A stretch of 45,736 nucleotides of DNA from assembly GCA_017650465.1 (NCBI GenBank), contig JAGCEW010000092.1, positions 1-45,736 on the forward strand. The letters are read 5' to 3'. Positions 3,103-25,112 of this stretch are shown here, in pieces; position 1 is the stretch's first letter; every line of letters starts with the position of its first letter. The DNA comes from Paludibacteraceae bacterium. GTDB taxonomy: Bacteria; Bacteroidota; Bacteroidia; Bacteroidales; Paludibacteraceae. Under the pieces are notes generated by a model. That model was not told the origin of the DNA and ran no database searches. It worked only from the letters and a program-made list of their open reading frames with translations. The position numbers were made by a program, and so were the translations under genes.

Positions 3103-3103
3103 A

Positions 3104-7555: not shown

Positions 7556-7562
7556 GGAAAAA

Positions 7563-7585: not shown

Positions 7586-7592
7586 AAAAAAG

Positions 7593-8204: not shown

Positions 8205-8216
8205 TATTGAAGAATT

Positions 8217-8603: not shown

Positions 8604-8609
8604 CATCCA

Positions 8610-8646
8610 ATTTCGGCAGATGTCCTTCGGGACCTACTGCCGAAAT
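8610..8646 (+). terminator. Strong stem-loop (UUCG tetraloop) after rpsI; a terminator or attenuator
   Basis: ATTTCGGCAG-at-GTCC-ttcg-GGAC-cta-CTGCCGAAAT is followed by GCTTCTTTG. No canonical promoter is visible between it and rpsB. Confidence 0.6.
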
Positions 8647-8768
8647 GCTTCTTTGTCCCCAACCGCCTTTGGCAGGTGCTCCGCTTGATCGAGTGGGAGT
8701 GAACGGATGAAAGAAGTGCGGATAATAAATATCAACTATTTATCAACTATCAAAAATCAACATTCAAA

Positions 8769-9617: not shown

Positions 9618-9652
9618 TAGCTTGATAACAACCTTGTAATAATTTCAAAATT

Positions 9653-10642
9653 ATGGCAGTAACACTTGCAGATATTAAGAAACTGCGCGAAATGACAGGC
9701 GCGGGAATGATGGACGTGAAGAAAGCATTGGAAGAAGCCAATGGTGACTTCGAAGTAGCTAAAGACTTGCTTCGTAAGCGTGGTCAGGCTATCGCAGCAA
9801 AGCGTAGCGACCGTGAAGCTTCGGAAGGCTGTGTACTCGCAAAGGCTGAAAACGGATTTGGTGCTATCGTAGCTGTTAAATGCGAAACCGACTTCGTGGC
9901 TAAGAACGAAGACTTCGTTGGTATGGTGAAACTCATCCTCGATGCTGCTATGGCTAACAAACCCGCCAATTTGGAGGAACTTCGTGCTCTCAAGATAGGT
10001 AACTTCACCGTTGCTGAAATCGTAACAGAGCGCAGTGGTGTCACCGGTGAGAAGATGGAACTCAGCGACTACGCTTTTATCGCAGCACCGAAAGTAGATG
10101 CTTACAACCACCTCGGTAATAAGCTCTCGTCTCTCGTTGCCGCTTCTGATGCCAATGCTGACCAGACCACCGTACACGGCGTAAATATGCAAGTCGCTTC
10201 GATGAACCCCGTCGCTTTGGATGCAGAGCACGTGGCTCAGGAGGTGAAAGATAGAGAACTCTCTGTTGCTATCGAAAAGACCAAACAGGACGAAGTCAAC
10301 AAGGCTATCGAACAAGCACTCCGTAAGGTGGGTATCAACCCCGCTCACGCTGACAGCGATGACCATATCGAGAGCAATCTCTCCAAGGGTTGGCTCACCG
10401 AAGAGGACGCACAGAAGGCTCGGGAGATTCGCGCGAATGTTCCGGCTGAAGCAGAAGCGAATATCAATATGAAGAAGGTGGAAATGATCGCTCAAGGACG
10501 TCTCCAGAAGTTCTTGAAAGAATCCACTTTGGTTGAGCAGCAATATATTATGTCTGACTCGAAAGAACTCGTGAAAGACGTGCTCAAACAAAACAACGTT
10601 ACCATCGTTGACTTCAAGCGTATTACCCTCAACGAAGAATAA
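9653..10642 (+). CDS. tsf: Elongation factor Ts
   Basis: Contains IKKLREMTGAGMMDVKKAL (UBA-like N-terminus). It sits immediately after rpsB. Confidence 0.96.
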   Translation: MAVTLADIKKLREMTGAGMMDVKKALEEANGDFEVAKDLLRKRGQAIAAKRSDREASEGCVLAKAENGFGAIVAVKCETDFVAKNEDFVGMVKLILDAAMANKPANLEELRALKIGNFTVAEIVTERSGVTGEKMELSDYAFIAAPKVDAYNHLGNKLSSLVAASDANADQTTVHGVNMQVASMNPVALDAEHVAQEVKDRELSVAIEKTKQDEVNKAIEQALRKVGINPAHADSDDHIESNLSKGWLTEEDAQKAREIRANVPAEAEANINMKKVEMIAQGRLQKFLKESTLVEQQYIMSDSKELVKDVLKQNNVTIVDFKRITLNEE

Positions 10643-10670
10643 TTTTTCGCAAAGATATCGCGAAATATTC

Positions 10671-10708
10671 AAAAAAATGACTTGGAAATTTGTCTAAGTC
10701 ATTTTTTT
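10671..10708. terminator. Intrinsic terminator after tsf, overlapping the ribF promoter
   Basis: AAAAAAATGACTT - ggaaatttgtct - AAGTCATTTTTTT, followed by further T residues. Confidence 0.7.
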
Positions 10709-10720
10709 TTCGTACCTTTG
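10689..10720 (+). promoter_or_regulatory. Promoter for ribF and the downstream barrel gene
   Basis: TTTG at 10689-10692 and TACCTTTG at 10713-10720, with a 20-nt spacer containing T9. Confidence 0.7.
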
Positions 10721-10740
10721 CGGGCTTTTTGGGAGAATAA

Positions 10741-11604
10741 ATGGCTTATGTAGCTACAATAGGATTTTTCGATGGTGTGCATCTTGGACATCAGTTCTTG
10801 CTCACTTCCTTGCGTCGTGAGGCCTCTCAACGCGCGCTCAAAGCCGCAGTAATTACATTTGAGCAACACCCTCGTAAGGTTTTACAAGGCGCTTCTCCGG
10901 CGTTGCTGACCACCTATAGTGAGCGCACCGACTTGCTCAAACAGCAGTCTTTGGATGAGATCTATGTTTTTCAGTTCGATGTCGTACGCGATATGACGTC
11001 TTCCGAGTTTTTGCATCTTTTGCGCGAACGATGCGATGTACGCGTACTTCTAATGGGATACGACCATCAGTTCGGCTCAGACGGGCATAAGTCTTTGGCG
11101 GAATACCAGTCACTCGGGAAAGAGGCTGGGGTAGAAGTCCTTCCTATAACGCAAGCGCCGGAAGGAGACGTCTCTTCGTCTAAGATACGTCGTTTGTTGC
11201 TTACGGGAGATGTCTGTCAAGCCAATGCTATGTTGGGCCGACCGTATAGGGTGCAAGGCACCGTGGTACACGGACGTGGATTAGGTAGGCAAATAGGCTT
11301 TCCGACGGCAAATATCTGTGTTGATAACAAGGACAAACTGATTCCCAAGGATGGTGTCTATGCCGTGCAAGTCACCACTGCTGATGGGTGTCCCCGCAAG
11401 GCGGTCTTGAACATCGGTACGAATCCCACCGTGGGAGGATCTGAACGCACCCTTGAGGTACATATACCCGATTTCTCAGGTGATTTATACGGACAGCCCA
11501 TAATTGTTAATCTTGTTCGTTATATCCGCGAAGAGTGTAAATTCAAATCAACAGACACCCTTCGCAAACAAATACAACAGGATTTAAACTGCCTGAATGA
11601 ATAG
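10741..11604 (+). CDS. ribF: Bifunctional riboflavin kinase / FAD synthetase
   Basis: The N-terminus is GFFDGVHLGHQ. The C-terminal riboflavin kinase part contains GRGLGRQIGFPTANI and LEVHIPDFSGDLYG. Confidence 0.93.
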   Translation: MAYVATIGFFDGVHLGHQFLLTSLRREASQRALKAAVITFEQHPRKVLQGASPALLTTYSERTDLLKQQSLDEIYVFQFDVVRDMTSSEFLHLLRERCDVRVLLMGYDHQFGSDGHKSLAEYQSLGKEAGVEVLPITQAPEGDVSSSKIRRLLLTGDVCQANAMLGRPYRVQGTVVHGRGLGRQIGFPTANICVDNKDKLIPKDGVYAVQVTTADGCPRKAVLNIGTNPTVGGSERTLEVHIPDFSGDLYGQPIIVNLVRYIREECKFKSTDTLRKQIQQDLNCLNE

Positions 11605-11630
11605 AACAAATCTGAGAAAAAACAGATACA

Positions 11631-14579
11631 ATGAAACACATCTTTTTAGCCTTTTTGCTATTTCCGATAACTCTCTTGGCGCAACAAACGGTGCGTGGAA
11701 AGGTCGTTAACAAGAGTGATAATTCACCCGTCGAGTTGGCTGCAGTGCGTCTCTTCTCGCACACGTCACCCACTGATTCCACCCTTGTTCAGGGGGTGCA
11801 GGCTGATTTGGAGGGTGTGTTTGTCTTGTCTCACGTCAAGCCCGGCAAGTACAGCCTTCTGGTATCGAGCATCGGCTTCTTGCCGTATCGCCAGTCGCTG
11901 GTAGTCTCTGCCAAACAAGACAAGTCGGATATCACACTTACCACGATCCGGCTGGCAGAAGATGTGCAAGTCTTGGAGGCGGTTGATGTCAAAGGTCACG
12001 CAGCTGAAATGACGGTCAAGGGCGATACCATCGAGTATAACACCGCTGCCTACAAGATTCAGGAAGGTGCGATGGTGGAGGACCTCCTCAAAAAGATGAA
12101 CGGTATTCAGGTGGACAAAGAAGGCAATGTCACGGTCAACGGAGAAACGGTCAAAGGTGTGCGCATTGACGGCAAAAAGTTCTTTGGCAACGATGTGCAG
12201 TCGGCCACCAAGAATATCCCTGCGGAGATGATTGATAAGATTCAGGTCATTGACGAAAAATCCGATATGGCGAAACTTACCGGCTTTGAGGATGATGACA
12301 CGGAACGTATTATCAATCTGTCGCTTAAGGCGAATCGCAAAAAAGGTGTCTTTGGCAATTTCGGAGGCGGTTTGGGTGCTGATCTTGTGACGGACGACAA
12401 CCGTTGGTTCAATTATGCCAACCCGGACTTTGGGGCTACGCCCGCTGAGCGAACGAAACATTTCTTCAAGAATGATTTCCGATATAATGCCAATCTCTTC
12501 ACGAATATTCTCCTCGGAGAGAGCCAGACTACTATTATCGGAGGTGCCAACAACACCAACGAGATTCGTTCCGGACGGGGGCGTGGTGCCTTTGGACAAC
12601 AGAATCAGGGTATTACTTGGAGCGAGAACTTAGGCGTGAACACCAATCTGGATTTGACCAAACAGCTTCGCAATCCGCGTCCACAAGCCTCACTTATCTT
12701 TGGCGGTGACGGACAGGCGGTGCATTCCTATAACGATTCGCGTTCGTTGAGCAATAAGGACAGTTACAGCAACGGCATCACCTATCAGAACGCCGATTCT
12801 ACCTCCAAGCAAGCTTGGTCGTGGGACACGCGCATCCGTCTGGAACTGGAATATCAGATTGATACGCTCAACAAACTGATCTTCAAACCCACCATCAACT
12901 ATACGCAGTCCCGATACGATGAGTATAGCGATTATCTTTACATGCGCGATGGAGATACGCTCAACAACGGCTATCAGTCGCGTTTCAGCCTACAGGACGA
13001 GATTGGCGCATCGTTGAACACCACCTACAATCATAAGTTCCTCCGTCCGGGGCGCTCGCTTACTATCAGTCTCGATTTGGGACTCACCGACACCAAAGGA
13101 CGTTCCGAGACCTTCGCGTTCGACCGCTTGCTGACCGATACAACGGTCGATCAGAACATCCGTTCCCTCCAAAATTCGTATTCTTATGGCATTAAGGCCT
13201 CGTATGTCGAACCCGTCTATGGCCGCAATCATTTCCTCGAGTTCGTCCTTTCTGCATCGGGAAACAATCGCTCTTCCGAGAAAAATCAGTATATAGGGCA
13301 GTCCCAACAGCGCATCGATTCAGCCTATTCCAGTTCGTTCACAAACAATTTCTATAACGAAGCACTCGAACTCAACTACCGTTGGCTGACCCAGAATAGT
13401 GACCTCAGTGTCGGTTTCCGCGTCAATCCCTCGCAGACGCGTTCCCGTACAACGTATATGGATACCGGAGTGGCACACGACACCCTTGTCTCCGTCTGGA
13501 ATTTCTCACCGAATGTCAATTTCAAGTACAAGTTCGGAAAGAAACAGTTCGCCCGTATTTCCTATCGTGGTACCTCTGTTCAGCCCTCTATCTCGCAGAT
13601 GGAGCCAACACGTAACAACTCCGACGCAATGAGCCGAACGGTTGGTAATCTGGATCTTAACCCCGCTTTCCGTCACACCTTGCGGGCGATGTTCTCTATG
13701 TTCAACGAAAAGACTTTCGTCAGCCTTATGGGAGGTGTTCGCGGTTCGCTTGACAAGGACGCACTGGTTTCCAATTCCATCTATGACGAGACAGGTAAAC
13801 TCTATCGTCAAACCGTCAATGCACGCTCTTTGCCTTGGAATATTGGTGCTGACTTTATGTTCAACCTTCCGTTTGCCAAGAAAATGATGCAGTTGCACAG
13901 CCGCACCTCGGCTTCTTATAATCAGCAGTTGGCCTATCTGTCGCGTGAGCACACAGCTTCCGATATCGCCAAATGGATGGACGGTGGACTACTGCCGCTC
14001 GGAGAGGAATCGCGCACCGGAAATCTACAAGTGGCGGAGAACCTGAACATTCGCTTCACCCACGATATCGTTGATTTGGGACTCAGTGGCGACTTCTCCT
14101 ATTCGCGCTCGAAGAATAGCCTCATCGCTAATTCCGTCTCCAACATCTTCTCTTGGACCGTCAAGGGCGACGTCGAGTTCCATTTGCCCAAAAACTGGAC
14201 CATCGCAGCCGATTGCGGATACACCGACCGATACGGCTATCGCTTGTCGGATGTCAGCGAACTCATCCTCAATGCGTCTGTCAGCAAAGCGTGGACGAAC
14301 GCAAGCCTCAAACTCAGCGCCTTCGATTTGCTGAACAATAAGAAGAATATCCGTCAGGTAGTGGGGGAGAACTATGTCCAGTACCAGAAGTTCAACACCT
14401 TGCCGACTTATGTGATGCTCACCTTTACCTACAAACTCAATAAGATGGGTGATATGAAGGCGAAAGGCATGGCGGGACACATCCAAGAGATGATAGAGCA
14501 GGGTGGTTCGGCATCGGGTCCTGTGCCGGGTATGCCTCCAAAGGGCACGCCCCCGATGGGACCTCCGCCGGGAATGTAA
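11631..14579 (+). CDS. Large outer-membrane beta-barrel family protein with an N-terminal carboxypeptidase-regulatory-like domain (TonB-dependent-receptor-like)
   Basis: The signal peptide is followed by QQTVRGKVVNKSDNSPVELAAVRLF (CarboxypepD_reg-like). There is a plug-like segment, GDTIEYNTAAYK..VRIDGKKFFGND, then a long Asn/Ser/Tyr-rich strand region. The tail is Pro/Gly-rich: GPVPGMPPKGTPPMGPPPGM. Confidence 0.85.
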   Translation: MKHIFLAFLLFPITLLAQQTVRGKVVNKSDNSPVELAAVRLFSHTSPTDSTLVQGVQADLEGVFVLSHVKPGKYSLLVSSIGFLPYRQSLVVSAKQDKSDITLTTIRLAEDVQVLEAVDVKGHAAEMTVKGDTIEYNTAAYKIQEGAMVEDLLKKMNGIQVDKEGNVTVNGETVKGVRIDGKKFFGNDVQSATKNIPAEMIDKIQVIDEKSDMAKLTGFEDDDTERIINLSLKANRKKGVFGNFGGGLGADLVTDDNRWFNYANPDFGATPAERTKHFFKNDFRYNANLFTNILLGESQTTIIGGANNTNEIRSGRGRGAFGQQNQGITWSENLGVNTNLDLTKQLRNPRPQASLIFGGDGQAVHSYNDSRSLSNKDSYSNGITYQNADSTSKQAWSWDTRIRLELEYQIDTLNKLIFKPTINYTQSRYDEYSDYLYMRDGDTLNNGYQSRFSLQDEIGASLNTTYNHKFLRPGRSLTISLDLGLTDTKGRSETFAFDRLLTDTTVDQNIRSLQNSYSYGIKASYVEPVYGRNHFLEFVLSASGNNRSSEKNQYIGQSQQRIDSAYSSSFTNNFYNEALELNYRWLTQNSDLSVGFRVNPSQTRSRTTYMDTGVAHDTLVSVWNFSPNVNFKYKFGKKQFARISYRGTSVQPSISQMEPTRNNSDAMSRTVGNLDLNPAFRHTLRAMFSMFNEKTFVSLMGGVRGSLDKDALVSNSIYDETGKLYRQTVNARSLPWNIGADFMFNLPFAKKMMQLHSRTSASYNQQLAYLSREHTASDIAKWMDGGLLPLGEESRTGNLQVAENLNIRFTHDIVDLGLSGDFSYSRSKNSLIANSVSNIFSWTVKGDVEFHLPKNWTIAADCGYTDRYGYRLSDVSELILNASVSKAWTNASLKLSAFDLLNNKKNIRQVVGENYVQYQKFNTLPTYVMLTFTYKLNKMGDMKAKGMAGHIQEMIEQGGSASGPVPGMPPKGTPPMGPPPGM

Positions 14580-14666
14580 CTCTTTAAGACACTCTCCCAA
14601 CTCTCCATCCCAATCCCCTTCGAATCCCGTCAACCCTCCATTCGAATTTCTCCGAATCCCTCCCAA

Positions 14667-14697
14667 GTACAGAACAAGTCCCAAGCTTGTTCTGTAC
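14667..14697 (+). terminator. Hairpin terminator after the barrel gene
   Basis: GTACAGAACAAG - tcccaag - CTTGTTCTGTAC forms a 12-bp perfect stem, followed by AATTCTTTG. Confidence 0.65.
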
Positions 14698-14728
14698 AAT
14701 TCTTTGACAATTCTTTGACAATTCTCGG
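14696..14728. repeat. Three tandem copies of an 11-bp unit (ACAATTCTTTG x2 plus ACAATTCTCGG)
   Basis: Read directly from the sequence. It abuts the larger 11-bp array. Confidence 0.9.
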
Positions 14729-14734
14729 ACTAAA

Positions 14735-14844
14735 CACGATAGATACACGATAGATACACGATAGATACACGATAGATATACGATAGATACACGATAGATA
14801 TACGATAGATATACGATAGATACACGATAGATATACGATAGATA
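14735..14844. repeat. Tandem array 1: ten 11-bp units, YACGATAGATA
   Basis: Ten head-to-tail units. The first base reads C,C,C,C,T,C,T,T,C,T across units. The array is intergenic and ends 85 bp before the -33 box of the giant-protein promoter. Confidence 0.97.
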
Positions 14845-14929
14845 CAGCAGGGGTCACCGAGACATCTCTTAGTCCGACCTAAGTAAAAAAATAAAAAAGA
14901 AAATTTTTCGTGCTTTTTTACCTATTTTA

Positions 14930-14961
14930 TTTGTTTATCTCAAAAAAATGTTGTACCTTTG
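14930..14961 (+). promoter_or_regulatory. Promoter of the giant surface-protein gene
   Basis: TTTG at 14930-14933 and TACCTTTG at 14954-14961, with a 20-nt spacer containing A7. A-tracts lie upstream. Confidence 0.75.
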
Positions 14962-15034
14962 CACCCGAATTTGATATAGGGAATACAACTCAACTAATCA
15001 ACAATAATTGTTTAACTTTAAAATCAGTACGTTT

Positions 15035-18000
15035 ATGAGAAAAATTCATTTACTTCTCACAACGCTAATGCTGATAGCATTTAGCGTCGGTACAGCGTGG
15101 GCCGGCTCGTACAGCCTTACTCCGAATCAGGCGACTACGGGTAGTGAATCTACCAAGTACATCACTACCTTGACCGAGTTCACCCACAACAGTATCACTT
15201 GGAAGATGAATCAGTGGAATCCATCTTCTCTGCAGGTGAAAACGAACCAGAGTTCTGCAACTGCGGAATTTAGATTCTACAACACATCTGCTTTCCCCGG
15301 TAAAATCACCAAAGTTGTAATTACTTTTAAGGCTCTTACAATCAGCAACCCCGACGAGACCGGTTTTATGTTTGTGGGAGGAACGAGCGAAGTATCCGGA
15401 ACAACGGGCGGTACGAATGGCGTCTGGGATGAAGATAACAAGACAATAACCTGGGAGCCTGCTTCTACAGATAATTTCACATACTTTGCTTTCTACCAGG
15501 ATGGTAAAAAAGCAACAAGTAGTAACTACTTGGCAGAATCGGACGCGATTGTAGTTACCTACGCGGACGGTGGAAGTAGCACCACTCCTTCTATCTCTGT
15601 TAAGCAGAAAGGTAGTGCTATCACAGAGATTGATTTCGGCAATGTGGTTGAAGACACTCAGGATGAAGATCATGGTAAAGCTGCGGTTCAGACCTTTGAT
15701 ATTAAGGGCGCTAACCTGACAGACAAGGTGAAGTTGGAAATTTCCAGTACTCACGCCATGAAGATTTATGTCCCCGGTTACGCTTCTCCGTATTTCAATA
15801 ACCTCACTCTTACTCCAAAGAACGGAGCTATCGACACGACGATTACGATAACTTCTTCTACCATAGGAACGGGAGAGAAGACCGGTGTTTTGACCGTCAG
15901 CAGTTTAACTTCTACGGCGGACTTTACGGCTATTAACATCGACCTTAAGATCAACCTCCTTGAGCGAGTAGATCCTACATCTGTAGCTCTGAACAAGACC
16001 GAGTTAGCGATGGAAGTTGGAGACGAAGAAACGCTGGTGGCTACCGTTTCTCCGGAAAATGCAACCAACAAAAAAGTAAAATGGCAGTCAAGCAACTCTG
16101 CCGTTGCAGATGTAGATGAGAATGGTAAGGTAACGGCAGTAGGCGAAGGTACTTGTACTATCCGCTGCTATGCAGAAGAGAATTACTACACCTATAAATC
16201 GTGCGAAGTAACCGTTTCCGCTCACACCGTCAAAGCCGGTACATATACTATTGATTTAAACAAAGATTTGTATGGCGTAGCTAAGGGCAATAATGAAACA
16301 GAACAGAGTGCATCGCAAAATGATATTACGATAGTTTCCGGATGTGAGTCTTATGCATCTAATAAAACCTATTATGATGATACTCATATTCGTTATTATA
16401 TGGATAGTTATCTAAAATTATCTGCACCTACCGGATTTGTAATTACGGAGGTAGTGTTCACCGCCGGAGGAACATGGAATGGTTACTTTACTGTGAATGC
16501 AGGAGAATATGATAAAGATACCAAAAAGTGGACAGGATCAACAAGTGAAGTAATTTTCTCGTTTACATCTCAGAACCGAATAGCATCTATCAAGGTTACC
16601 TATGCGGCCGCTTCCGAGATCGCTTTGCCGAATATTTCCGGCCAGACTCCGTTCTATCCCTCTACTACGGTGACAATGACTATTGATACCGATGGTGCAG
16701 ATATTATCTATACCATGAACGGTGAAGACCCGTTAGGTGGAGATAACACCTATTCGCAACCGATCGTTTTGACGGAAACGAAGACCATTAAGGCGCGCGG
16801 ATTCAAGGGCGTAAAACTGGGAGAAGTCGCTTCAAAGACCTTCACGAAGGCTACGCCGATTAGTGTAACGGACGCTATTGCGGCTATTCCGAATGAGAAC
16901 GATGCGGTAGATAACGCGTTTGTCTATGGTTATGTTTGCACTTTGAGTGAGTCTGATCCGAATGCTAACGGCCAGATGACCTATTATATTTCGAAAGACG
17001 GTACAGAAACCAACCGCCTGCAGATTTATAAAGGTAAAGGTCTGAACAATGCTGCCTTTGCATCGAAGGAGGACATTGCTTTGGGCGATAAAGTAGTTAT
17101 ATATGGTCAGTTGAAGAACTATGGCGGCACGTATGAAATGAACTCCGGCAACTATATCGTTGAGAAAGTTGCGAAGGGTGATGTACAGAGTGTGGTTATC
17201 AGTGGCGATGCTACGCATGGCGCTTATGAAGGCGGTGATGCTTTCGATCCTGCAGGATTGAAGGTTACTGCAACTTATGCAAGCGGATATCAAGAGGATG
17301 TAACCGCTTCTGCTACGTGGTCGCCGGCAACTATCACTACACAGTCGGGCAACACAGATGTAACGGCTACCTTTGGTGGTAAGACCAGTGATGCCAAGAC
17401 GGTGAACATTACGCTCAATAAGTACACCGTTACCTTCAATACTTCCGTATATGGTGGTACTTGGGGTATTAAGAAAGGCGACAATTATATCAAAACCGGT
17501 AACTACTTCCCGAAGGGTACTGTCCTGACGGTAGTTACTGAAGCTGTTGCTGGATATAAGTTAGGTAGTATTACCGTGAACGATGCACCGCTGGAGGGCA
17601 ATGAGATTACAATCGGTACGGAGAATATCACCGTTGCCGTAGAGTTCGCAATGATTCAAGAAGGTGTGCTCGTTCTCTCGACCAACTCTTTGAACTGGGG
17701 CTCTATCAATGTAGGTACTAAGCCTCAGGATGTTCCTTATCAAACCTTCACGCTGACAGGTGGTAACTTAACACAAGGCCGCACCGTGAAACTGACGGCT
17801 CCGACTTGGTGCTATCTGACTCAAACTACTGCTAATCCTACGGCTGGCGGTAATATCGCAACAACCAGTTTCTATGTATATGTGAAGGATGCAACGCTTG
17901 AGACGGCTGGTGAGTATAGCGGTAATATCGTTATCTCCAGCGATGACCTCGCAAAAGATAGCTTGGTTGCTGTCAAACTGACTGTTACGGAGAAAAAGGA

Positions 18001-21000
18001 CGGTAAACTGACCCTGTCGAAGAACGTTGTGGACTTCGGTGCAAGCAAAATAGGTTCGTCGATTGCAAGTCAATCGTTCAAACTGAGCGGTACAGGCTTT
18101 ACGCCTAATGGTACCATCAGCTTGGCATTTGCCGGAGATAATAAAGACTACTTCGGTCTGATGACTAACAGTTACACTGCAGACGCTAATGGTGCTATCA
18201 GTGAAAAGAACGTGGAGATTTTGGTGGATGAAACAGCTTATGCTACCTATGGTGTACGTGACTGCCAACTCAAAATCTCGAGTGACGACCTGACAAGCGA
18301 CAGTATCGTAACAATCAAACTGACCGTGGGTGGCGTAGTAAGTACAACTCCGAGTCCGGTGGCATTGGACCTGGGCGATGTACTCAATAACGACAATCCG
18401 TCTCTCTATGGAAAGACCTTCCACATTAAGATTACTAACCTCAGTGCAAATAAACAAGCGCGTGTCGTTCCGTCTACGGCAAGTTTCTCTGTTGAGCCAT
18501 ATTATATAATTGCCAATGCGGATGGTGTGATTGACCGCGATGTAACCATCCTTCCGTATCTGAACGGCGGCGGTGCTGCGGTTTATAACGCAAACCTTGA
18601 GGTGGTATGTTCCGGAACGCGTGAGTTTAATGATATTAAAGTAGGTACAGTAACGATGAATCTCTTAGAGGCATATAAGGTTATTGTTCCTGAGATCTCT
18701 AACGGCTCACTCAGTTGGGACGGCGGTACAGCTCCGCAAGCAGCACGCCCGGGTACAACTCATACGCTCGTTGCTACTCCTGCTTCGGGTTACGAAGGTG
18801 GTACTATCCAAATCCTGAAGAACAGTGACGATAGTGATATTACAGAAGATGTGCTTGATGGTTCAACACTAACGATGCCCTCTTACAACATCAAGGTTGT
18901 TGTTAGCGGCTTCAAGCAGTCTGCTAAACCTTCCCTACCGATGTCTTGGAAATATGAAACTTATACCTTGACATTCGGCGAATTCAAAGAGCCCGCACTC
19001 TACTCGTCGCTCAAGATCAATGATAATCTCAAGAGTACGTACGGAGACCAGATTGTTATCACCAGTAGCAATACGAATGTAGCTACCTACACCAGCAAGT
19101 ACTCCGAGTATCAATGTTATACGGTATATAACAGCATCGTAGGCGCAGGTACGACAATCTTCACGGCTTACTTTGCCGGAGACGACACCTATGGTGAGAC
19201 AACGGTTACCTACACGCTGACCGTTAATAAAGCGGACGCAGGTCTCGCATGGAGCGCAAACGCAGCAACGGTTAAGTATGGCGCAAGCAACAATGTCTTC
19301 CCGACGCTGAGCAATCCGAATAACTTGACTGTATCTTATGAGTGTGCCCCGAATTGGATTGCTACCATTGATAGTAATGGTGCTATTACGATCGTCAATG
19401 TGGGCGAGGCAACTATCACGGCTAAGTTTGCCGGCAATAGTAACTACAACGCACAGACGGTTGAATACACGCTCACTATTGAGAAGGGTATTCCGGGATA
19501 CGAGTATCAGATTAACGGCTCAAAGGTAGAGGATGTATATGTGACCTATGGCGCTAAGGACAATGTCTTCCCGACATTGGTTAAGCCGGAAGACTTTGGC
19601 GTAAACTACAAGAGTTCTAACACGGCTGTAGCTGCTATTAATACTTCCGGTACGATTTATCTCTACAAAGCAGGTACAACTACCATCAAGGCTTGCTTCT
19701 GGGGAACTTCTCAATGGGAACCCGACACGGCTACCTTTGTCCTCCACGTGGCAAAGGGTACTCCGAAACTCGAATGGAACGCACAGTACACCCAGATTGT
19801 AAATGGTGAGGTGACTGTAGATATTTACGATAGTGCAGATGGACGCCAGTTACCGCATCTGAACTCTGATGCGCCGGACGGAGTTGTGATTACATCAAAC
19901 AATGAGAGCGTTGTGAAGATTAACGAAACATTCAAATATCCGGTACTGCAGTACGAAACCGGTGACGCAATCGTCACTGCTTCGTTCGCAGAGAATGACC
20001 AATACAATGCGAAGTCCATCAGCTACACCGTTCATGCAGTAGATAATATCCGCTATGAGTCCAACCTCCAGTGGAGAATTGGAACAGAGCAAGTTTCTTC
20101 CGCTTCGGTAACCTTGGCTGGTAATGACAATGTATTCCCAACGCTGTACAACCCGCGCGGAGTAACGCCTACGTATAGCAGTTCAAACGAAAATGTAGCT
20201 ACTATCAGCAACGGAACAATTACCCTTGTAGGAGCCGGTACTACGACTATTACTGCTTCCTTCGACGGTAACTATTCCTACAAGCCCTCGACTGCTACCT
20301 ATACGCTGACGGTGAATGCCGTTGCGAATATCTCTGTTGGTGGAGTATCCTCAATAGACTTTGGCACTGTTAATAAGGGTGCTTCTGTAGATGAGCAGAG
20401 TTTTACGCTCACCGGTTCTAACCTCACAGGAAACGTGAAAGTAACAGTAGCAACAGAGGGTAGTACGACTGCGTTCGTTACCAACGGATTCCGTCCGAGT
20501 AACACATTCACTCCGACTGATGGCGCTATCAATGCTTCTGTTGTAGTGATACCTTATACATCCAATGCCGGTAACTTCAATGGCTCGCTGACTATTCATA
20601 GTCTTACAGACGACTTTGAGGATATCGTCATTCCGCTGCATATTTGGGTGAAGGCTAAACCGACCATCACGCTCGAAGCCGGCACACAGGTTCACATGAC
20701 AGTGAAGAATGGTAACACCGTCATCAACAGCGGTGACGCAGTAGAGGAAGGAACCGTGCTCACGGTGGAGATCTCTATGGGTAGTACCAGTTGGAAACTC
20801 ACCTCGCTGACCGCGGGCGGCGTAGATATTATGGAATCCAGACAGTTCACTGTAGGTACCACTAATATCACCGTCGTGGCTACCAGTGATATGAAAGAAG
20901 ACTCAGACATCACTTGGAGTTCGACCGAAGTAGTCTATGCGTACACCGACGGCAGCAAGGCTACAGTTTGGCCGACTATCGAGAACCCGCACAACATCGC

Positions 21001-21763
21001 CGGTGTTACATGTCGTTCATCGAACGAGCAAGTAGCAAGCGTGGATAATAACGGTAATGTGACGATTCACAAAGAAGGTCAGATCTATATCTGGGTTGAG
21101 GTTAAGAACAATAACGACTACAAAGATGCAAGTGCAAGTTATATGCTCCGCGTTTGCGCACCCGACCATATTAATGTATCGGAGTGGTCTTCTCACCAAG
21201 TATCTTATGAATACGGTGACAACTTCAACTTCAACGGCTTTAAGGCTGAGTTGTATTACAATAACTATGGCGGTAAGCGTGATGTAACTGAGGAGGCAAC
21301 GTGGACTACGGACCCGGCTGCCATCACCGAAGATGGTAATATCACCGTCAATGCAACGGTGGGCGCTATCACCGGTTCGGTAAGCAACGTAAATGTAGTT
21401 GTTAGCAAGCACACCATTGCTATCAACTCCGCAACTCACGGAAGCATCGTTGTTATGCACGGTGACAATGTGGTTGCCAGTGGTGATAAGTTCGTCTATG
21501 GTACCGAACTGACCGTATCCGTAACGCCGGAAGAAGGTTATGAACTGAACACGCTGAAAGCTAATGGTGTTATTATTGAAGAAGGTACGTTCATCGTAAG
21601 ATCGGTAGATGTAACCTTTACTGCTACCTTCAAGCAATCACAAGCTACTGCGTTGGATAACACCACCATTGAGAACCGTCCGACGAAGATCATTCGCGAC
21701 AACAAGGTTTATATCCTTCGTGGCGATAAGATCTACACGGTAGAAGGTCAGTTGGTAAAATAA
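15035..21763 (+). CDS. Giant (2242 aa) secreted multidomain surface, adhesin-like protein
   Basis: The ATG at 15035 gives the signal peptide MRKIHLLLTTLMLIAFSVGTAWA; the 15008 start in the track is TTG. By eye it contains: a Big_2 domain (VALNKTELAMEVGDEETLVATVSPENATNKKVKWQSSN); a chitobiase-C/Fn3-like segment (GADIIYTMNGEDP..TIKARGF); an OB-like segment (VYGYVCTLSE..IYGQLKNYGGTYEM); two Big_3-like segments; five choice-of-anchor-D-like units (DFGxVxxG...QxFxLxGxNL); four InlB-B-repeat-like units; and six ~90-aa Ig-like repeats (..NVFPTLxNP..SSNxxVAxI..GxTTIxAxF..YTLTV). Confidence 0.9.
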   Translation: MRKIHLLLTTLMLIAFSVGTAWAGSYSLTPNQATTGSESTKYITTLTEFTHNSITWKMNQWNPSSLQVKTNQSSATAEFRFYNTSAFPGKITKVVITFKALTISNPDETGFMFVGGTSEVSGTTGGTNGVWDEDNKTITWEPASTDNFTYFAFYQDGKKATSSNYLAESDAIVVTYADGGSSTTPSISVKQKGSAITEIDFGNVVEDTQDEDHGKAAVQTFDIKGANLTDKVKLEISSTHAMKIYVPGYASPYFNNLTLTPKNGAIDTTITITSSTIGTGEKTGVLTVSSLTSTADFTAINIDLKINLLERVDPTSVALNKTELAMEVGDEETLVATVSPENATNKKVKWQSSNSAVADVDENGKVTAVGEGTCTIRCYAEENYYTYKSCEVTVSAHTVKAGTYTIDLNKDLYGVAKGNNETEQSASQNDITIVSGCESYASNKTYYDDTHIRYYMDSYLKLSAPTGFVITEVVFTAGGTWNGYFTVNAGEYDKDTKKWTGSTSEVIFSFTSQNRIASIKVTYAAASEIALPNISGQTPFYPSTTVTMTIDTDGADIIYTMNGEDPLGGDNTYSQPIVLTETKTIKARGFKGVKLGEVASKTFTKATPISVTDAIAAIPNENDAVDNAFVYGYVCTLSESDPNANGQMTYYISKDGTETNRLQIYKGKGLNNAAFASKEDIALGDKVVIYGQLKNYGGTYEMNSGNYIVEKVAKGDVQSVVISGDATHGAYEGGDAFDPAGLKVTATYASGYQEDVTASATWSPATITTQSGNTDVTATFGGKTSDAKTVNITLNKYTVTFNTSVYGGTWGIKKGDNYIKTGNYFPKGTVLTVVTEAVAGYKLGSITVNDAPLEGNEITIGTENITVAVEFAMIQEGVLVLSTNSLNWGSINVGTKPQDVPYQTFTLTGGNLTQGRTVKLTAPTWCYLTQTTANPTAGGNIATTSFYVYVKDATLETAGEYSGNIVISSDDLAKDSLVAVKLTVTEKKDGKLTLSKNVVDFGASKIGSSIASQSFKLSGTGFTPNGTISLAFAGDNKDYFGLMTNSYTADANGAISEKNVEILVDETAYATYGVRDCQLKISSDDLTSDSIVTIKLTVGGVVSTTPSPVALDLGDVLNNDNPSLYGKTFHIKITNLSANKQARVVPSTASFSVEPYYIIANADGVIDRDVTILPYLNGGGAAVYNANLEVVCSGTREFNDIKVGTVTMNLLEAYKVIVPEISNGSLSWDGGTAPQAARPGTTHTLVATPASGYEGGTIQILKNSDDSDITEDVLDGSTLTMPSYNIKVVVSGFKQSAKPSLPMSWKYETYTLTFGEFKEPALYSSLKINDNLKSTYGDQIVITSSNTNVATYTSKYSEYQCYTVYNSIVGAGTTIFTAYFAGDDTYGETTVTYTLTVNKADAGLAWSANAATVKYGASNNVFPTLSNPNNLTVSYECAPNWIATIDSNGAITIVNVGEATITAKFAGNSNYNAQTVEYTLTIEKGIPGYEYQINGSKVEDVYVTYGAKDNVFPTLVKPEDFGVNYKSSNTAVAAINTSGTIYLYKAGTTTIKACFWGTSQWEPDTATFVLHVAKGTPKLEWNAQYTQIVNGEVTVDIYDSADGRQLPHLNSDAPDGVVITSNNESVVKINETFKYPVLQYETGDAIVTASFAENDQYNAKSISYTVHAVDNIRYESNLQWRIGTEQVSSASVTLAGNDNVFPTLYNPRGVTPTYSSSNENVATISNGTITLVGAGTTTITASFDGNYSYKPSTATYTLTVNAVANISVGGVSSIDFGTVNKGASVDEQSFTLTGSNLTGNVKVTVATEGSTTAFVTNGFRPSNTFTPTDGAINASVVVIPYTSNAGNFNGSLTIHSLTDDFEDIVIPLHIWVKAKPTITLEAGTQVHMTVKNGNTVINSGDAVEEGTVLTVEISMGSTSWKLTSLTAGGVDIMESRQFTVGTTNITVVATSDMKEDSDITWSSTEVVYAYTDGSKATVWPTIENPHNIAGVTCRSSNEQVASVDNNGNVTIHKEGQIYIWVEVKNNNDYKDASASYMLRVCAPDHINVSEWSSHQVSYEYGDNFNFNGFKAELYYNNYGGKRDVTEEATWTTDPAAITEDGNITVNATVGAITGSVSNVNVVVSKHTIAINSATHGSIVVMHGDNVVASGDKFVYGTELTVSVTPEEGYELNTLKANGVIIEEGTFIVRSVDVTFTATFKQSQATALDNTTIENRPTKIIRDNKVYILRGDKIYTVEGQLVK

Positions 21764-21780
21764 CCCAACCCGACCAAACG

Positions 21781-21810
21781 AAAAAAGAGACTCGCAAGAG
21801 TCTCTTTTTT
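21781..21810. terminator. Bidirectional intrinsic terminator after the giant gene
   Basis: AAAAAAGAGACTC - gcaa - GAGTCTCTTTTTT. Confidence 0.85.
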
Positions 21811-21919
21811 CGTTCACCACCTTCGCATCGGATTTCGGAATGTGAATCTTTTAATCTTGAAATCCATCACGTGATAGATAGCATATCTCGCGCTACTCTC
21901 GCGCCGCTCAGACGAAAAG

Positions 21920-21947
21920 AATCAGGGCGGTATTTACCGCCCTGATT
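21920..21947 (-). terminator. Terminator hairpin of the minus-strand operon
   Basis: AATCAGGGCGG - tattta - CCGCCCTGATT. On the minus strand it is followed by CTTTTCGTC. It lies 45 nt past the stop of the GGGtGRT gene. Confidence 0.7.
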
Positions 21948-21991
21948 GATCCCTTTAAGGGGAGATGTTCTTTGATGTATTGAACGCAGAT

Positions 21992-23002
21992 TTACTTGTT
22001 CAGCGCCAAAGCTACGTTAACTGCGCAGGCTACGGTGCAACCTACCATCGGATTGTTACCGATACCCAGGAAGCCCATCATCTCTACGTGTGCGGGCACG
22101 GAGCTGGAACCTGCGAACTGTGCATCGCTGTGCATACGTCCCATGGTGTCGGTCATGCCGTACGATGCGGGACCGGCTGCCATGTTATCAGGGTGCAGGG
22201 TACGACCGGTGCCTCCGCCCGAAGCAACCGAGAAATACGGCTTGCCTGCCAGGATACGTTCTTTCTTGTACGTACCTGCTACGGGGTGTTGGAAGCGGGT
22301 GGGGTTCGTGGAGTTACCCGTGATGGATACATCCACATTCTCGTGCCACAGGATAGCCACACCTTCGCGTACATCGTCGGCACCATAGCAGTTCACTTTG
22401 GCACGCGGTCCGTTGGAGTAGGCTTTGCGACGCACCTCTTTGAGTTCGCCGGTGAAGTAGTCAAACTCCGTTTGCACATAGGTGAAGCCGTTGATGCGGC
22501 TGATTATCATGGCTGCGTCTTTACCCAGACCGTTCAGGATGATACGCAGCGGGTTCTTGCGCACTTTATTGGCCATTTCGGCTATCTTGATAGCACCTTC
22601 AGCGGCGGCAAAGCTCTCGTGTCCGGCGAGGAATGCAAAGCATTCGGTCTCTTCGCGCAGCAGACGGGCGGCGAGATTGCCGTGACCGATTCCCACTTTG
22701 CGGTCGTCTGCCACGGAACCGGGGATGCAGAAGGCCTGCAGACCGATACCGATAGCTTCGGCGGCGTCAGCAGCGTTCTTGCAGCCTTTTTTCAGGGCGA
22801 TGGCGCTACCTACAACGTAGGCCCATTTGGCGTTCTCGAAGCAGATACGCTGTGTCTCTTCGCAGGTCAGATAGGGGTCAAGGCCTGCTTTCTCGCATAT
22901 TTCGTTGGCTTCTTCTATCGACTTGATGCCATTGGCATTCAGGGCGGCGAGGATTTGTTTCTCGCGGCGGTCTTGTGACTCGAATTGAACAGGACGGATC
23001 AT
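21992..23002 (-). CDS. GGGtGRT family protein (conserved, function unknown)
   Basis: 336 aa and contains the family-defining SVASGGGTGRTLHPDNMAAGPASYGM. Confidence 0.85.
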   Translation of the reverse strand: MIRPVQFESQDRREKQILAALNANGIKSIEEANEICEKAGLDPYLTCEETQRICFENAKWAYVVGSAIALKKGCKNAADAAEAIGIGLQAFCIPGSVADDRKVGIGHGNLAARLLREETECFAFLAGHESFAAAEGAIKIAEMANKVRKNPLRIILNGLGKDAAMIISRINGFTYVQTEFDYFTGELKEVRRKAYSNGPRAKVNCYGADDVREGVAILWHENVDVSITGNSTNPTRFQHPVAGTYKKERILAGKPYFSVASGGGTGRTLHPDNMAAGPASYGMTDTMGRMHSDAQFAGSSSVPAHVEMMGFLGIGNNPMVGCTVACAVNVALALNK

Positions 23003-23006
23003 AATT

Positions 23007-23708
23007 TTACTCCTTTCTTGGGTCTATGGATTTAACGGCGCCCTGTTCTTTGGTGGTACGGCCATAGGTACCGGTAACGCTTTTGAGGGCTTCATTAGCG
23101 TCCATTCCTTTCTTGATGGCATCCATGAATTTGCCCATATGGACATATTCATATCCGCATATCTCGTTGTCTTCGTCCAAATATTCTTTGGTGATATAGC
23201 CTTCGGTCAGTTGCAGATAGCGCGCACCTTTGGCTTGGGTCGAATACAGGGTGCCCACTTGGCTTACCAGACCCTTGCCGAGGTCTTCCATGCCCGCACC
23301 GATAGCGAGACCGCCTTCCGAGAAGGCCGATTGCGTACGTCCGTAAACGATTTGTAGGAACAACTCGCGCATAGCTGTATTGATGGCGTCGCACACAAGG
23401 TCGGTGTTCAGCGCTTCAAGCAGGGTCTTGCCCGGCAGAATTTCGGCGGCCATGGCGGCTGAGTGGGTCATGCCTGAGCAGCCGATTGTCTCCACCAAAG
23501 CTTCTTCGATGATACCGTTCTTCACATTCAAACTCAGCTTGCATGCGCCTTGTTGCGGGGCGCACCAGCCTATACCGTGGGTCATGCCCGAGATGTCGCC
23601 TATCTCTTTGGCTTTCACCCATTTACCCTCTTCGGGGATGGGAGCCGGTCCGTGATGAGGACCTTTGGCTACCTGGCACATATTCTGTACCTCGTTGGTG
23701 TAAATCAT
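23007..23708 (-). CDS. NifU/IscU-like Fe-S cluster scaffold-related protein (233 aa)
   Basis: Contains GWCAPQQGACKLSLNVKNGIIEEALVETIGCSGMTHSAAMAAEILPGKTLLEAL, which resembles the IscU N-domain. I chose the ATG at 23708 because the 23798 start lies upstream of the predicted promoter. Confidence 0.7.
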   Translation of the reverse strand: MIYTNEVQNMCQVAKGPHHGPAPIPEEGKWVKAKEIGDISGMTHGIGWCAPQQGACKLSLNVKNGIIEEALVETIGCSGMTHSAAMAAEILPGKTLLEALNTDLVCDAINTAMRELFLQIVYGRTQSAFSEGGLAIGAGMEDLGKGLVSQVGTLYSTQAKGARYLQLTEGYITKEYLDEDNEICGYEYVHMGKFMDAIKKGMDANEALKSVTGTYGRTTKEQGAVKSIDPRKE

Positions 23709-23755
23709 AAAATCTCTTCGTTTTGTTTCTTTTGTTTTCTTGTCAAAATAGCCTG

Positions 23756-23787
23756 CAAAAGTACAGGTTTTTTTTGGAATATGCAAA
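23756..23787 (-). promoter_or_regulatory. Promoter of the NifU-like / GGGtGRT operon
   Basis: The minus strand reads TTTG (23787-23784) - 20 nt with A8 - TACTTTTG (23763-23756). Confidence 0.7.
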
Positions 23788-23879
23788 TAAAATTGCAAAA
23801 AAGTGGAAAAATTCTGTTTTTATGTTCATTCGGCTTCCCTGTAATTTTCCCTGAATTTCCCTTCCGTTTCCGAGCTAAA

Positions 23880-23989
23880 CACGATAGATATACGATAGAT
23901 ACACGTTAGATATACGATAGATATACGTTAGATACACGATAGATATACGTTAGATATACGATAGATACACGATAGATATACGATAGATA
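23880..23989. repeat. Tandem array 2: ten 11-bp units, YACGWTAGATA
   Basis: Ten head-to-tail units in the same orientation as array 1. The first base reads C,T,C,T,T,C,T,T,C,T across units. Units 3, 5 and 7 have T instead of A at position 5. Confidence 0.97.
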
Positions 23990-24087
23990 ATAGGGACATT
24001 ATCGGGACGCAAGCGGGAGAAAAGCAGGCCCGTTTGGTGTCGTTCAACTCTAAACCTTAAACGTTCAACCAAAAATCTTCGATTTTA

Positions 24088-24119
24088 TTTGCATATCTCA
24101 AAAAAAAGCAGTACCTTTG
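24088..24119 (+). promoter_or_regulatory. Promoter of the lipoprotein gene and probably the long co-directional gene string behind it
   Basis: TTTG at 24088-24091 and TACCTTTG at 24112-24119, with a 20-nt spacer containing A8. Confidence 0.75.
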
Positions 24120-24149
24120 CGCCCGCAAATTCTTAAATACCATAAAATC

Positions 24150-25112
24150 ATGAGAAAAATACTTTATTTTGCCTTTGCGGCAGTGTTGGCGGTAGCCTTT
24201 GCTTCGTGTGAAAAGAAATCGAATTCGGAATCGGGAGAGAACACAGCCGCTTGGATCAATCCTAATTCTCAGAACGGGTTGATGCTTCACAAATTTTCTG
24301 TTGCTGACACTCGGACGGTGCGTTTTTCGCAAGGTAACTTGCAGTATAGGGCAAGCACCGGCACATGGCGTTTCGCGCCCAACCAGTGGGAAATGATAGG
24401 GGGCGATAACAGTAACCGTTCAATGGATTACAACGGTTGGATCGATTTGTTCAGTTGGGGGGCAACCGGATACAATGGCAGATTACCCCATGTAGTGCCG
24501 TCATCCTCCGGTGATTTTCAGGAACCGCAAGGTAGTATTGCGAATACCGATTACGATTGGGGGTACTATCTTTCCATCGTCAATGGTGGCAATCAGAAGA
24601 ATCTTTGGCGCACACTGACGGATAAGGAATGGGAGTATCTGTTCCACGGGCGGACGAATGCGGAACAGCGTTTCGGATTTGCTACGGTGAATGACGTGGA
24701 GGGGCTGATTCTTCTTCCGGATGATTGGGAGAATCCTACGGAAGTCTTGGGGTTCACTGCAAGTACCGATAAGGGCTTGAATTGGGAAAGTGATTTTGGC
24801 TCATACCAAGACCGTACGAAGACTGTCCATTATTTGGACAACAACTATACCGCCACCCAATGGAAAGCAATGGAAAAGGCGGGGGCAATCTTTTTGCCGG
24901 CAGCAGGGGGGTATAGCAATGACACTTACTTTAATAAAAACATCAATAGTGATTATAACAGAGGAGGTTATTGGTCTGCAACGCGAAAGAATGATAATCA
25001 GGTCTATGTGTTGGATTTCTATTCCAATCCTACAGGCACGCATACTTTCCTCGCTCCATCTACGAATACCACTCATGTGCAATTTGGAGAAGCTGTTCGT
25101 CTGGTGCGTTGA
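24150..25112 (+). CDS. Lipoprotein with a FISUMP-like (Fibrobacter succinogenes major paralogous) domain
   Basis: The ATG at 24150 gives MRKILYFAFAAVLAVAFASC (lipobox). Other motifs are FSQGNLQY, DLFSWGATGYNG, WRTLTDKEWEYL, IFLPAAGGY, GGYWSAT and a C-terminal GEAVRLVR. The track start at 24117 is TTG inside the -7 box. Confidence 0.7.
   Translation: MRKILYFAFAAVLAVAFASCEKKSNSESGENTAAWINPNSQNGLMLHKFSVADTRTVRFSQGNLQYRASTGTWRFAPNQWEMIGGDNSNRSMDYNGWIDLFSWGATGYNGRLPHVVPSSSGDFQEPQGSIANTDYDWGYYLSIVNGGNQKNLWRTLTDKEWEYLFHGRTNAEQRFGFATVNDVEGLILLPDDWENPTEVLGFTASTDKGLNWESDFGSYQDRTKTVHYLDNNYTATQWKAMEKAGAIFLPAAGGYSNDTYFNKNINSDYNRGGYWSATRKNDNQVYVLDFYSNPTGTHTFLAPSTNTTHVQFGEAVRLVR

Follow-up and report, generated by a model that had tools for sequence, protein, structure and literature searches.

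Why would one stretch of bacterial DNA carry, 9 kb apart and on the same strand, two arrays of exactly ten copies of one 11-bp unit, each ahead of a promoter? We addressed this question in a 45,736-nt contig of a Paludibacteraceae bacterium (GenBank assembly GCA_017650465.1, contig JAGCEW010000092.1; hereafter, the window), for which a preliminary description, made from the sequence alone, had singled out two tandem arrays of the unit YACGWTAGATA. We find that these arrays belong to a previously undescribed dispersed repeat family of rumen and gut Paludibacteraceae. The element is intergenic, conserved, helically phased and biased in orientation, it spans ~110 bp, and the two arrays of the window are fully homogenised copies of it:

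14735 to 14844, + strand: array 1, ten units of YACGATAGATA with first bases CCCCTCTTCT (from the sequence, TRF and pattern scan)
23880 to 23989, + strand: array 2, ten units of YACGWTAGATA with first bases CTCTTCTTCT and W = T in units 3, 5 and 7 (from the sequence, TRF and pattern scan)

Tandem repeats in the window were called with Tandem Repeats Finder (TRF), and unit matches were counted with a two-unit pattern scan against 100 dinucleotide-preserving shuffles. TRF placed array 1 at 14734-14846 (period 11, 10.3 copies, score 198) and array 2 at 23881-23989 (period 11, 9.9 copies, score 176-197), and the two-unit pattern matched 18 times in the window and not once across the shuffles. Outside the two arrays, the window holds only three one-mismatch singletons of the unit (~2.4 expected by chance) and no other resemblance to it. 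The coordinates, unit, copy number (ten each) and + strand of the preliminary description are all correct by sequence and TRF, and so are its finer observations: the C/T state of the first base is the same in units 5-10 of both arrays (CCCCTCTTCT versus CTCTTCTTCT), three units of array 2 (the third, fifth and seventh) have T instead of A at position 5, and both arrays are entered through the left junction CTAAA-CACGATAGATA (CTAAA followed by CACG). The leaders before these junctions, said to have a beat of roughly 11 bp, repeat every 11-12 bp when measured (ACAATTCTTTG 2.7 times at 14696-14725; TTCCCTGTAATT 2.5 times at 23835-23862). Neither array is coding, with no open reading frame (ORF) of at least 80 amino acids (aa) spanning either in full. 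The view that both derive from a single element, and did not arise separately by slippage, is now more strongly supported, since the repeat proves to be dispersed family-wide. We also considered a dimer of 22 bp as the unit; the alternation of first bases is weak (54% versus 48% expected), and the unit is therefore 11 bp.

The evidence for a family-wide repeat comes from a scan of one genome per GTDB species in which two adjacent units were required. At least 116 stretches matched, showing the arrays to be widespread: YACGWTAGATA arrays lie at no fewer than 116 loci in ~60 Paludibacteraceae/Bacteroidales species known from metagenome-assembled genomes (MAGs), mostly from rumen or hindgut. Every match listed is from Paludibacteraceae or unclassified Bacteroidales/Bacteroidia, except one two-unit match in an Acidobacteriota MAG. 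Single genomes hold many copies, at least 8-11 loci per genome in RUG12580 (93% identical to the window) and Red_deer_4_mag_9. Among the matches listed, arrays have 2-14 units, mostly 4-5, and those of 10-14 units occur in the window lineage and in the RGIG10178 MAG only. A scan of 2.9 million viral contigs gave a lone chance-level two-unit match, so the element is not phage-borne.

Rfam at the gathering threshold gave no match in the window and, at ten related loci, only two tRNAs, both upstream of arrays; at an E-value threshold it found nothing at the array of L094 (L numbers denote related array loci or contigs fetched for comparison). A search of the published literature for the unit, the 11-bp tandem or Paludibacteraceae repeats found no description, matches to the unit being primer coincidences. 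The arrays consist of contiguous 11-mers without spacers, and no cas gene was found among the handful of scanned ORFs adjoining them, the rest of the window being unscreened for cas. The preliminary description had not recognised the unit as a known operator, repetitive extragenic palindrome (REP) or CRISPR repeat.

The anatomy of the element extends beyond its exact units. Within arrays, positions A2, C3, G4, T6, A7, A9 and T10 are near-invariant and Y1, W5 and G/C8 vary. The left flank continues in register with 2-3 units resembling CCGCTATCAAc, and the right flank with 3-4 units of the form A.C.TA (for example ACCCTATTCAC ACCGTAGGAAT ACCGTATCTAT). These flanks are degenerate units in the 11-bp register, and the whole element therefore comprises ~10-12 phased units, or ~110 bp, with a homogenised centre. 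The flanks of the window lineage differ, reading AATTCTCRGGMTAAA, array, ACAGGGMCATYATCGGGMC, with in-phase CG in the tails; in the window itself they are as follows:

14696 to 14734, + strand: leader of array 1, ACAATTCTTTG repeated 2.7 times, then the lineage-specific left junction AATTCTCGGACTAAA, which is common to L094, L129, L130 and L131
14845 to 14877, + strand: tail of array 1, CAGCAGGGGTC ACCGAGACATC TCTTAGTCCGA, with in-phase CG kept in the second tail unit
23835 to 23879, + strand: leader of array 2, pyrimidine-rich TTCCCTGTAATT repeated 2.5 times, then the junction TTTCCGAGCTAAA
23990 to 24022, + strand: tail of array 2, ATAGGGACATT ATCGGGACGCA AGCGGGAGAAA, with in-phase CG in the second and third tail units

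The tail of array 2 matches the window-lineage tail consensus, ACAGGGMCATYATCGGGMC. Leaders and tails are genome-specific and shared among the copies of one genome; in Red_deer_4_mag_9, a 14-bp tandem module is followed by CAGCAAGCAAG, the array and AAGCAGACCTCACCG. This 14-bp module (ACACGCAGTCCCCA, two to eight copies) lies left of the arrays at L053, L072, L081, L091, L095 and L109 (Red_deer_4_mag_9 and RUI460), and together with the 11-bp array it forms a mosaic that fills the space between the upstream stop codon and the array. With the main unit removed, 11 is still the commonest tandem period at the loci (54 arrays, versus 16 of period 10 and 22 of period 12), and sister 11-mers with CGATA or CGnTA occur (GACGATAAGCY, ACACGGWCGAT and ACGGTAGATAY).

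The element has the strict 11-bp register of direct-repeat operators, with a CGnTA core that persists in the degenerate flank units, and it is multi-copy and intergenic, with a tandem core between leader and tail, as are elements of the MITE type (miniature inverted-repeat transposable elements). Terminal inverted repeats (TIRs) are inconsistent: array 1 is bracketed by a 9-bp inverted repeat (TCGGACTAA at 14725-14733, with its partner TTAGTCCGA in the tail) and L038 has one of 11 bp, while array 2 and most copies have none. We found no shared termini among paralogous copies, no consistent direct duplication of the target site (TSD) flanking copies and no transposase associated with them.

Orthologous copies are islands of conservation. 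Upstream of a gene for a small basic protein, five units in one variant order are kept in seven species, where mean pairwise identity is 0.98 across the array, 0.82 over the 22 nt left of it, 0.88 over the 36 nt right of it and 0.68 in the next 64 nt; beyond the element, identity is 0.16-0.22 further upstream and 0.29-0.45 further downstream. A second group, in the 5′ untranslated region (5′UTR) of a giant surface-protein gene, also keeps the element, with units numbering 2 to 5 and a ~63-nt indel shifting the distance to the promoter. Between clades of the small-protein gene the placement itself changes, the array lying in the 5′UTR in one clade and upstream of a canonical promoter in another.

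Array 2 could be followed between strains through ten contigs that encode an identical NifU-like protein. The left junction is the same in 10/10, the variant order is mostly identical, and unit number is ten in nine of these independent contigs and 11 in the other. Array 2 is not hypervariable, because nine of ten contigs agree, and the copy-number polymorphism considered in the preliminary description is not borne out by this comparison. Nor does the pair resemble slipped-strand contingency loci, with the arrays 85-98 nt upstream of the -33 box and the unit number of array 2 stable. Strain variants of array 1 were sought through the exact sequence of the OMP_b-brl_3 protein encoded before it; the one readable contig ends 126 bp past the gene, before the array.

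Four contigs (L118, L120, L123 and L124) diverge from the window immediately past the last unit of array 2, with a different tail and then an insert of 5.4-6.1 kb that encodes an AAA_14/DUF4143 ATPase and leucine-rich repeat (LRR_5) proteins. At its far end the insert carries a direct duplicate of a promoter module (L118 positions 4104-4533 and 9354-9719):

24041 to 24124, + strand: 84-bp promoter module, directly duplicated at both ends of the 5.4-6.1 kb insert in related strains

Upstream of the displaced lipoprotein promoter, the insert strains carry the tail motif inverted, as GGACCGAnnAT repeats. A 245-bp block of array, tail and promoter is shared at 94.7% identity between array 2 and L104, a second RUG12580 locus with different neighbours. 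This shared block and the divergence after array 2 together indicate that promoter modules move along with the arrays and that arrays can lie at the borders of structural variants; judging from the point of divergence in this one structural variant, they may act as portable homology. Short-read contigs often end at or just before arrays (L128, at the contig end, L021, L104 and L116).

The 9 kb between the two arrays had been proposed as a segment that they might delete or amplify. The giant-adhesin segment is indeed present in the window strain only, but its relatives differ by a larger rearrangement with breakpoints at ~2950 and ~21992, not at the arrays, and among the metagenome contigs, in a collection that may lack such a strain, none links the sequence left of array 1 with that right of array 2. 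Nothing indicates that the two arrays of the window recombine. The 19-kb block concerned (2950-21991) lies between a 320-aa gene (1987-2949) and GGGtGRT; in its place the relatives (L117-L121) carry DUF3276, BamA, RNase HII, SppA, LpxK and MsbA. The 11-bp arrays at its left breakpoint differ, the window having AACACAGGATT and the relatives GACGATGAGCT.

We then considered where the arrays lie with respect to genes. A simple ORF-based gene call placed 112 of 118 arrays between genes; the ORFs that seem to overlap the other six are probably spurious, because the reverse strand of the unit is stop-free in every frame. Where the flanking genes are co-directional, the ACGATAGATA strand matches the sense strand in a ratio of 51:10, or 30:9 when de-replicated (68 orthology groups, p=0.001). 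Divergent regions outnumber convergent ones 28:5, an excess that is not significant after de-replication (13:5).

Promoters were read as the Bacteroidetes -33/-7 type, the host's kind, rather than as sigma-70 promoters, and three layouts were found. In the first, the -7 box is 22-33 nt upstream and the array lies in the 5′UTR (about a dozen loci); in the second, the -7 box is ~93-136 nt downstream (~27 loci, both window arrays included), at distances without 11-bp quantisation; in the third, the array occupies a tight intercistronic gap with no recognisable promoter. As an operator, the element thus has no fixed geometry, being upstream, downstream or between cistrons with a variable position relative to the promoter. 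The downstream genes are diverse, encoding large secreted proteins, lipoproteins, topA and trmD-, lptB-, mraY- and fabF-like products (all but topA named by eye from N-terminal translations), and signal peptides are found in 45% of them against a background of 33% (p=0.03, a crude test). The preliminary description had tied the arrays to surface-protein promoters. Given these diverse genes, the weak signal-peptide enrichment and promoters at variable or undetectable positions, a specific link is not supported, and any association amounts to no more than a weak tendency. The tendency is more marked in the window lineage, in which most downstream genes are accessory (surface proteins, methylase-like genes and an AAA_14 ATPase).

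The most frequent downstream gene, which the window does not encode, is that of the Paludibacteraceae-restricted small basic protein (115-137 aa, MA....P....SGK...RTRNGRTHAY). An array precedes it at 14-15 of the fetched loci, each in a different MAG (L004, L018, L019, L026, L030, L043, L055, L058, L059, L066, L075, L077, L099 and L001). The protein has no Pfam, PHROG or NCBIfam match, its 579 homologues are without functional annotation, and its AF2 model is weak (pLDDT 64), with nothing found by Foldseek at E<1. Between array and topA there is a conserved, hairpin-rich leader of ~470 nt (L094 2742-3215, L129 and L116; for example AATGTCCGGTGGACATT and GGAGTGCCTTGAATGGCACTCC), which has no Rfam match even at E<=1.

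In the window, gene context was taken from a Pfam scan of a handful of ORFs adjoining the arrays. Array 1 lies between genes for a 982-aa OMP_b-brl_3 protein and a 2242-aa Big_2/Fn3_assoc protein. Array 2 has GGGtGRT and NifU-like genes on its left, on the minus strand, and on its right genes for a 320-aa lipoprotein, a nitroreductase and PdxA. The lipoprotein had been labelled 'FISUMP-like', a label it loses here, with no Pfam match and only a sub-threshold NCBIfam match. Three promoters adjoin the arrays:

14930 to 14961, + strand: promoter of the 2242-aa Big_2/Fn3_assoc surface-protein gene (15035-21763), with -33 TTTG, an A-tract spacer and -7 TACCTTTG
24088 to 24119, + strand: promoter of like type, of the 320-aa lipoprotein gene (24150-25112)
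23756 to 23787, - strand: divergent promoter of the NifU-like/GGGtGRT operon

The distances reported earlier hold, with TTTG-N-TACCTTTG 85 nt past array 1 and 98 nt past array 2, and the divergent promoter (23787-23756) 92 nt before array 2 (93 bp in the preliminary description). A 39-nt inverted repeat (23755-23793 versus 24082-24120, 87% complementary) makes the two promoters around array 2 divergent copies of one, with the array about midway between them (spacers of 86 and 92 bp) and no sense promoter upstream of it.

What might such an element do? The reading that we favour, at a probability of roughly 0.4, is that it is a helically phased DNA platform for a putative conserved protein and has spread as a mosaic interspersed repeat. 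The protein-binding array of the preliminary description, its binder being putative, thus survives as the most economical explanation. Such a protein would recognise the in-phase core CGnTA, with one protomer bound at each helical turn in head-to-tail fashion, so that about ten protomers would cover one element. We infer head-to-tail recognition because degenerate units and sister families retain both the CGnTA core and the 11-bp register. Copies placed upstream of a canonical promoter are as well conserved as those in the 5′UTR, which suggests a role at the DNA rather than the RNA level. In the window, two strong promoters would have the platform 85-98 nt upstream of their -33 boxes, and a third, divergent promoter would lie 92 nt away; the platform could serve the downstream gene as an upstream nucleoprotein block that regulates or insulates it. 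The element would have spread with its genome-specific leader and tail modules, sometimes with a promoter module as well, and would provide portable homology at the edges of strain-variable cassettes. Its distribution, phasing, conservation island, sense bias and stable copy number suggest this reading, as does a predicted twist of 368-370 degrees per unit (wedge model), which would place all units on one face of the helix, as had been proposed.

Known direct-repeat systems show how such a platform might work, since regulators of the OmpR/PhoB type, CarH and ParR employ their 11-bp direct repeats in this manner. Operators of the OmpR/PhoB family (Pho boxes, and the direct repeat units, or DRus, of Streptomyces) have 2-8 repeats with a conserved core of 6-7 bp and a free spacer, close to the -35 region. 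The CarH operator is described as three tandem 11-bp repeats (PMC9304148). The present arrays are like both in their head-to-tail 11-bp period on one helix face, in an orientation that matters and in their upstream or transcribed placement; they differ in having up to 14 near-identical units at ~100 bp or a variable distance from the promoter. Closer in number is parC of plasmid R1, whose ten 11-bp iterons, bound by ParR, are split 5+5 around the par promoter beside parMR. The likeness is in the exactly ten 11-bp direct repeats near a promoter, which in parC assemble a helical protein filament. The difference is that the present element has many chromosomal copies (at least 8-11 loci per genome) with unrelated neighbours, and no rep or par gene was found among the scanned neighbours of the window arrays.

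Several observations weigh against the platform. No binding protein was found, the downstream genes are functionally diverse, and the position of the arrays relative to promoters is not fixed; array-to-(-7) distances are not quantised at 11 bp, which argues against a stereospecific contact with RNA polymerase. Conservation covers eight of the 11 unit positions rather than a core with a free spacer, a pattern that homogenisation from a master copy fits equally well. Leaders and tails that are specific to a genome, and mosaics such as those formed with the 14-bp repeats, are what one expects of proliferating repeats, and gene conversion between copies is another way in which a conservation island can form.

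A bolder form of the proposal, which we consider unlikely, is a family-wide DNA-binding system in which a protein would polymerise on CGnTA cores, ~ten protomers per 110 bp, into a block setting or insulating transcription at dozens of loci, among them, in the window lineage, strain-variable surface-protein, restriction-modification and ATPase cassettes. The small basic protein is a candidate partner in such a system, and nothing can be concluded from its analysis.

The main rival, possible if somewhat doubtful, is a selfish or near-neutral interspersed minisatellite, mosaic and MITE- or REP-like, akin to BrickBuilt of Porphyromonas gingivalis. Orientation bias would then reflect tolerance within transcription units, and conservation either master-copy homogenisation or the needs of a mobilising factor. 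Multiple copies whose leaders and tails are shared within a genome, mosaics with 14-bp and other 11-mer modules, and the 245-bp block of array 2 amid different neighbours at L104 all favour it. So do the occupation of every kind of intergenic site, tight intercistronic gaps included, and the frequent ending of contigs at arrays. The general anatomy matches that of BrickBuilt, which has a 23-nt tandem unit with leader and tail, 19 copies that are always intergenic, and IS5-like TIRs, and which is limited to P. gingivalis and P. gulae (PMC4596501). Shared features are the Bacteroidales host, ~10-20 or more copies per genome, intergenic and often promoter-adjacent placement, and a spacer-less variable tandem core between leader and tail. 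The present element differs in its 11-bp unit, in leaders and tails that vary by genome and in a unit conserved family-wide. It also has no consistent TIR or TSD, and formal MITE membership fails for this reason. The missing transposase and the single chance-level viral match likewise count against a selfish repeat, as do the near-invariance of the unit across ~60 species, in contrast to the narrow range of BrickBuilt, the stable copy number and the exact variant order that orthologous copies keep amid unalignable neighbouring DNA.

REP elements and bacterial interspersed mosaic elements (BIMEs), BOX elements and mycobacterial interspersed repetitive units (MIRUs) offer a broader comparison, and host proteins, IHF and gyrase among them, bind to some of these. 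They are likewise extragenic, multi-copy, mosaic and orientation-biased, some within operons, but REP is palindromic and BOX and MIRU have species- or genus-specific units of 40-100 bp, unlike the short, non-palindromic, phased 11-mer described here. By analogy with REP/BIME, the platform and the selfish repeat would be compatible. The closest described system is BrickBuilt, and the likely mechanistic analogues are the 11-bp direct-repeat operators of OmpR/PhoB type, of CarH and of ParR-parC.

Could the element act as RNA instead? The sense transcript, (ACGAUAGAUAY)n, might be an unstructured, A-rich leader or intercistronic segment that binds an RNA-binding protein or a small RNA, or that, with TAG in every frame from three units onwards, enhances or insulates translation. 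The sense bias, the dozen or so loci at which a -7 box 22-33 nt upstream makes the mRNA begin with the array, and the tight intercistronic copies (L038, L067, L098 and L101) are consistent with this idea, as are G-poor flanks on the sense strand. Structured RNA was rejected as a candidate, with z-scores of +0.53 and -0.07 and no Rfam match at the arrays, and a transcript without structure is what the proposal assumes. Yet both window arrays and ~40% of loci lie upstream of a canonical promoter, array 2 has no sense promoter before it, equally conserved copies occur where sense transcription is unexpected, and the Rfam searches of the window and related loci matched no array. We therefore regard a role in RNA as distinctly unlikely.

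A purely structural role for the DNA is a long shot. On this account, any 11-bp repeat would give in-phase curvature or flexibility, aiding wrapping by gyrase or nucleoid proteins or promoter activation, with no need for recognition of a specific sequence. Units in helical phase, a total phased length of ~110 bp in different lineages and the over-representation of period 11 for many unrelated units fit such a role, and the window itself holds two further short 11-bp arrays, the first in a like layout:

2968 to 2999, + strand: unrelated 11-bp array, AACACAGGATT repeated 2.9 times, 128 bp upstream of the -7 box at 3128 (TRF, promoter scan)
32832 to 32852, + strand: related 11-bp mini-array, ACGGTATCTCG repeated 1.9 times, 27 nt upstream of the -33 box at 32880

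The reverse complement of the mini-array unit, GAGATACCGTC, resembles the main unit. Curvature was predicted with a wedge model using parameters after Bolshoy/Trifonov. The predicted value, ~54 degrees per 110 bp, is modest, lying at the 89th percentile of genomic 110-mers and below 77% of shuffled-unit arrays. The intrinsically bent upstream DNA raised in the preliminary description is accordingly disfavoured by this model and was set aside as a candidate, and structure of this general kind would leave the near-invariance of one 11-mer in ~60 species unexplained.

Finally, a contingency locus or recombination substrate, in which unit-number slippage switches promoters or the direct arrays delete or amplify the 9-kb adhesin segment, is highly improbable: unit number does range from 2 to 14 between loci and sometimes varies between species at one locus, four contigs do diverge right after array 2 and the adhesin segment is strain-specific, but array 2 keeps ten units in 9/10 contigs, neither array falls within the -33/-7 spacer or an ORF, no contig joins the two, the adhesin rearrangement breaks elsewhere, and at its far edge the insert has a duplicated promoter module, not an array.

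The surroundings of the arrays contain further features. The promoters of the window share an extended consensus, TTTG-N7-8-A8-GNNNTACCTTTGC, which recurs at six sites and goes well beyond the generic Bacteroidetes -33/-7 motif; two more, at 10689 and 43056, have a T-run in place of the A-tract. A possible termination region precedes array 1:

3104 to 3135, 7593 to 7624, 14930 to 14961, 24088 to 24119 and 32880 to 32911, + strand, and 23756 to 23787, - strand: promoters of the extended consensus
14580 to 14697, + strand: C-rich, G-poor tract followed by a perfect hairpin with a 12-bp stem (14667-14697), between the stop codon of the OMP_b-brl_3 gene and the leader of array 1

In this tract TCCC recurs every ~11 nt 3′ of the stop codon, and the hairpin has no U-tract; the region may be a Rho-type or non-canonical terminator. 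Rho utilisation or pause sites, considered as readings of the C-rich leader and the in-phase CG, fail to explain the orientation bias. An invertible promoter of the Bacteroides Mpi type, prompted by AAACGTTCAA near 24063, was rejected, as no inverted partner lies downstream of the promoter. At the end of the window, a 174-bp tandem repeat (45331-45733, 2.3 copies, 87% identity) apparently lies inside the coding sequence of a large secreted protein that starts at ~43116 and runs off the window end (a putative frame), and it probably encodes repeated protein domains.

The Paludibacteraceae (RF16-type) are abundant, uncultured, fibre-associated bacteria of rumen and hindgut, and to our knowledge nothing is known of their gene regulation. 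A family-conserved, exactly phased, many-copy cis-element under clear constraint offers a handle for finding a global DNA-binding factor, and it may account for the organisation of promoter cassettes and variable surface-protein genes. The arrays also matter for MAG quality and strain typing: they break short-read assemblies, since contigs end at them, and they mark the edges of strain-variable segments. Even if the element were only a selfish minisatellite, it would still be a second, independent example in the Bacteroidales beside BrickBuilt.

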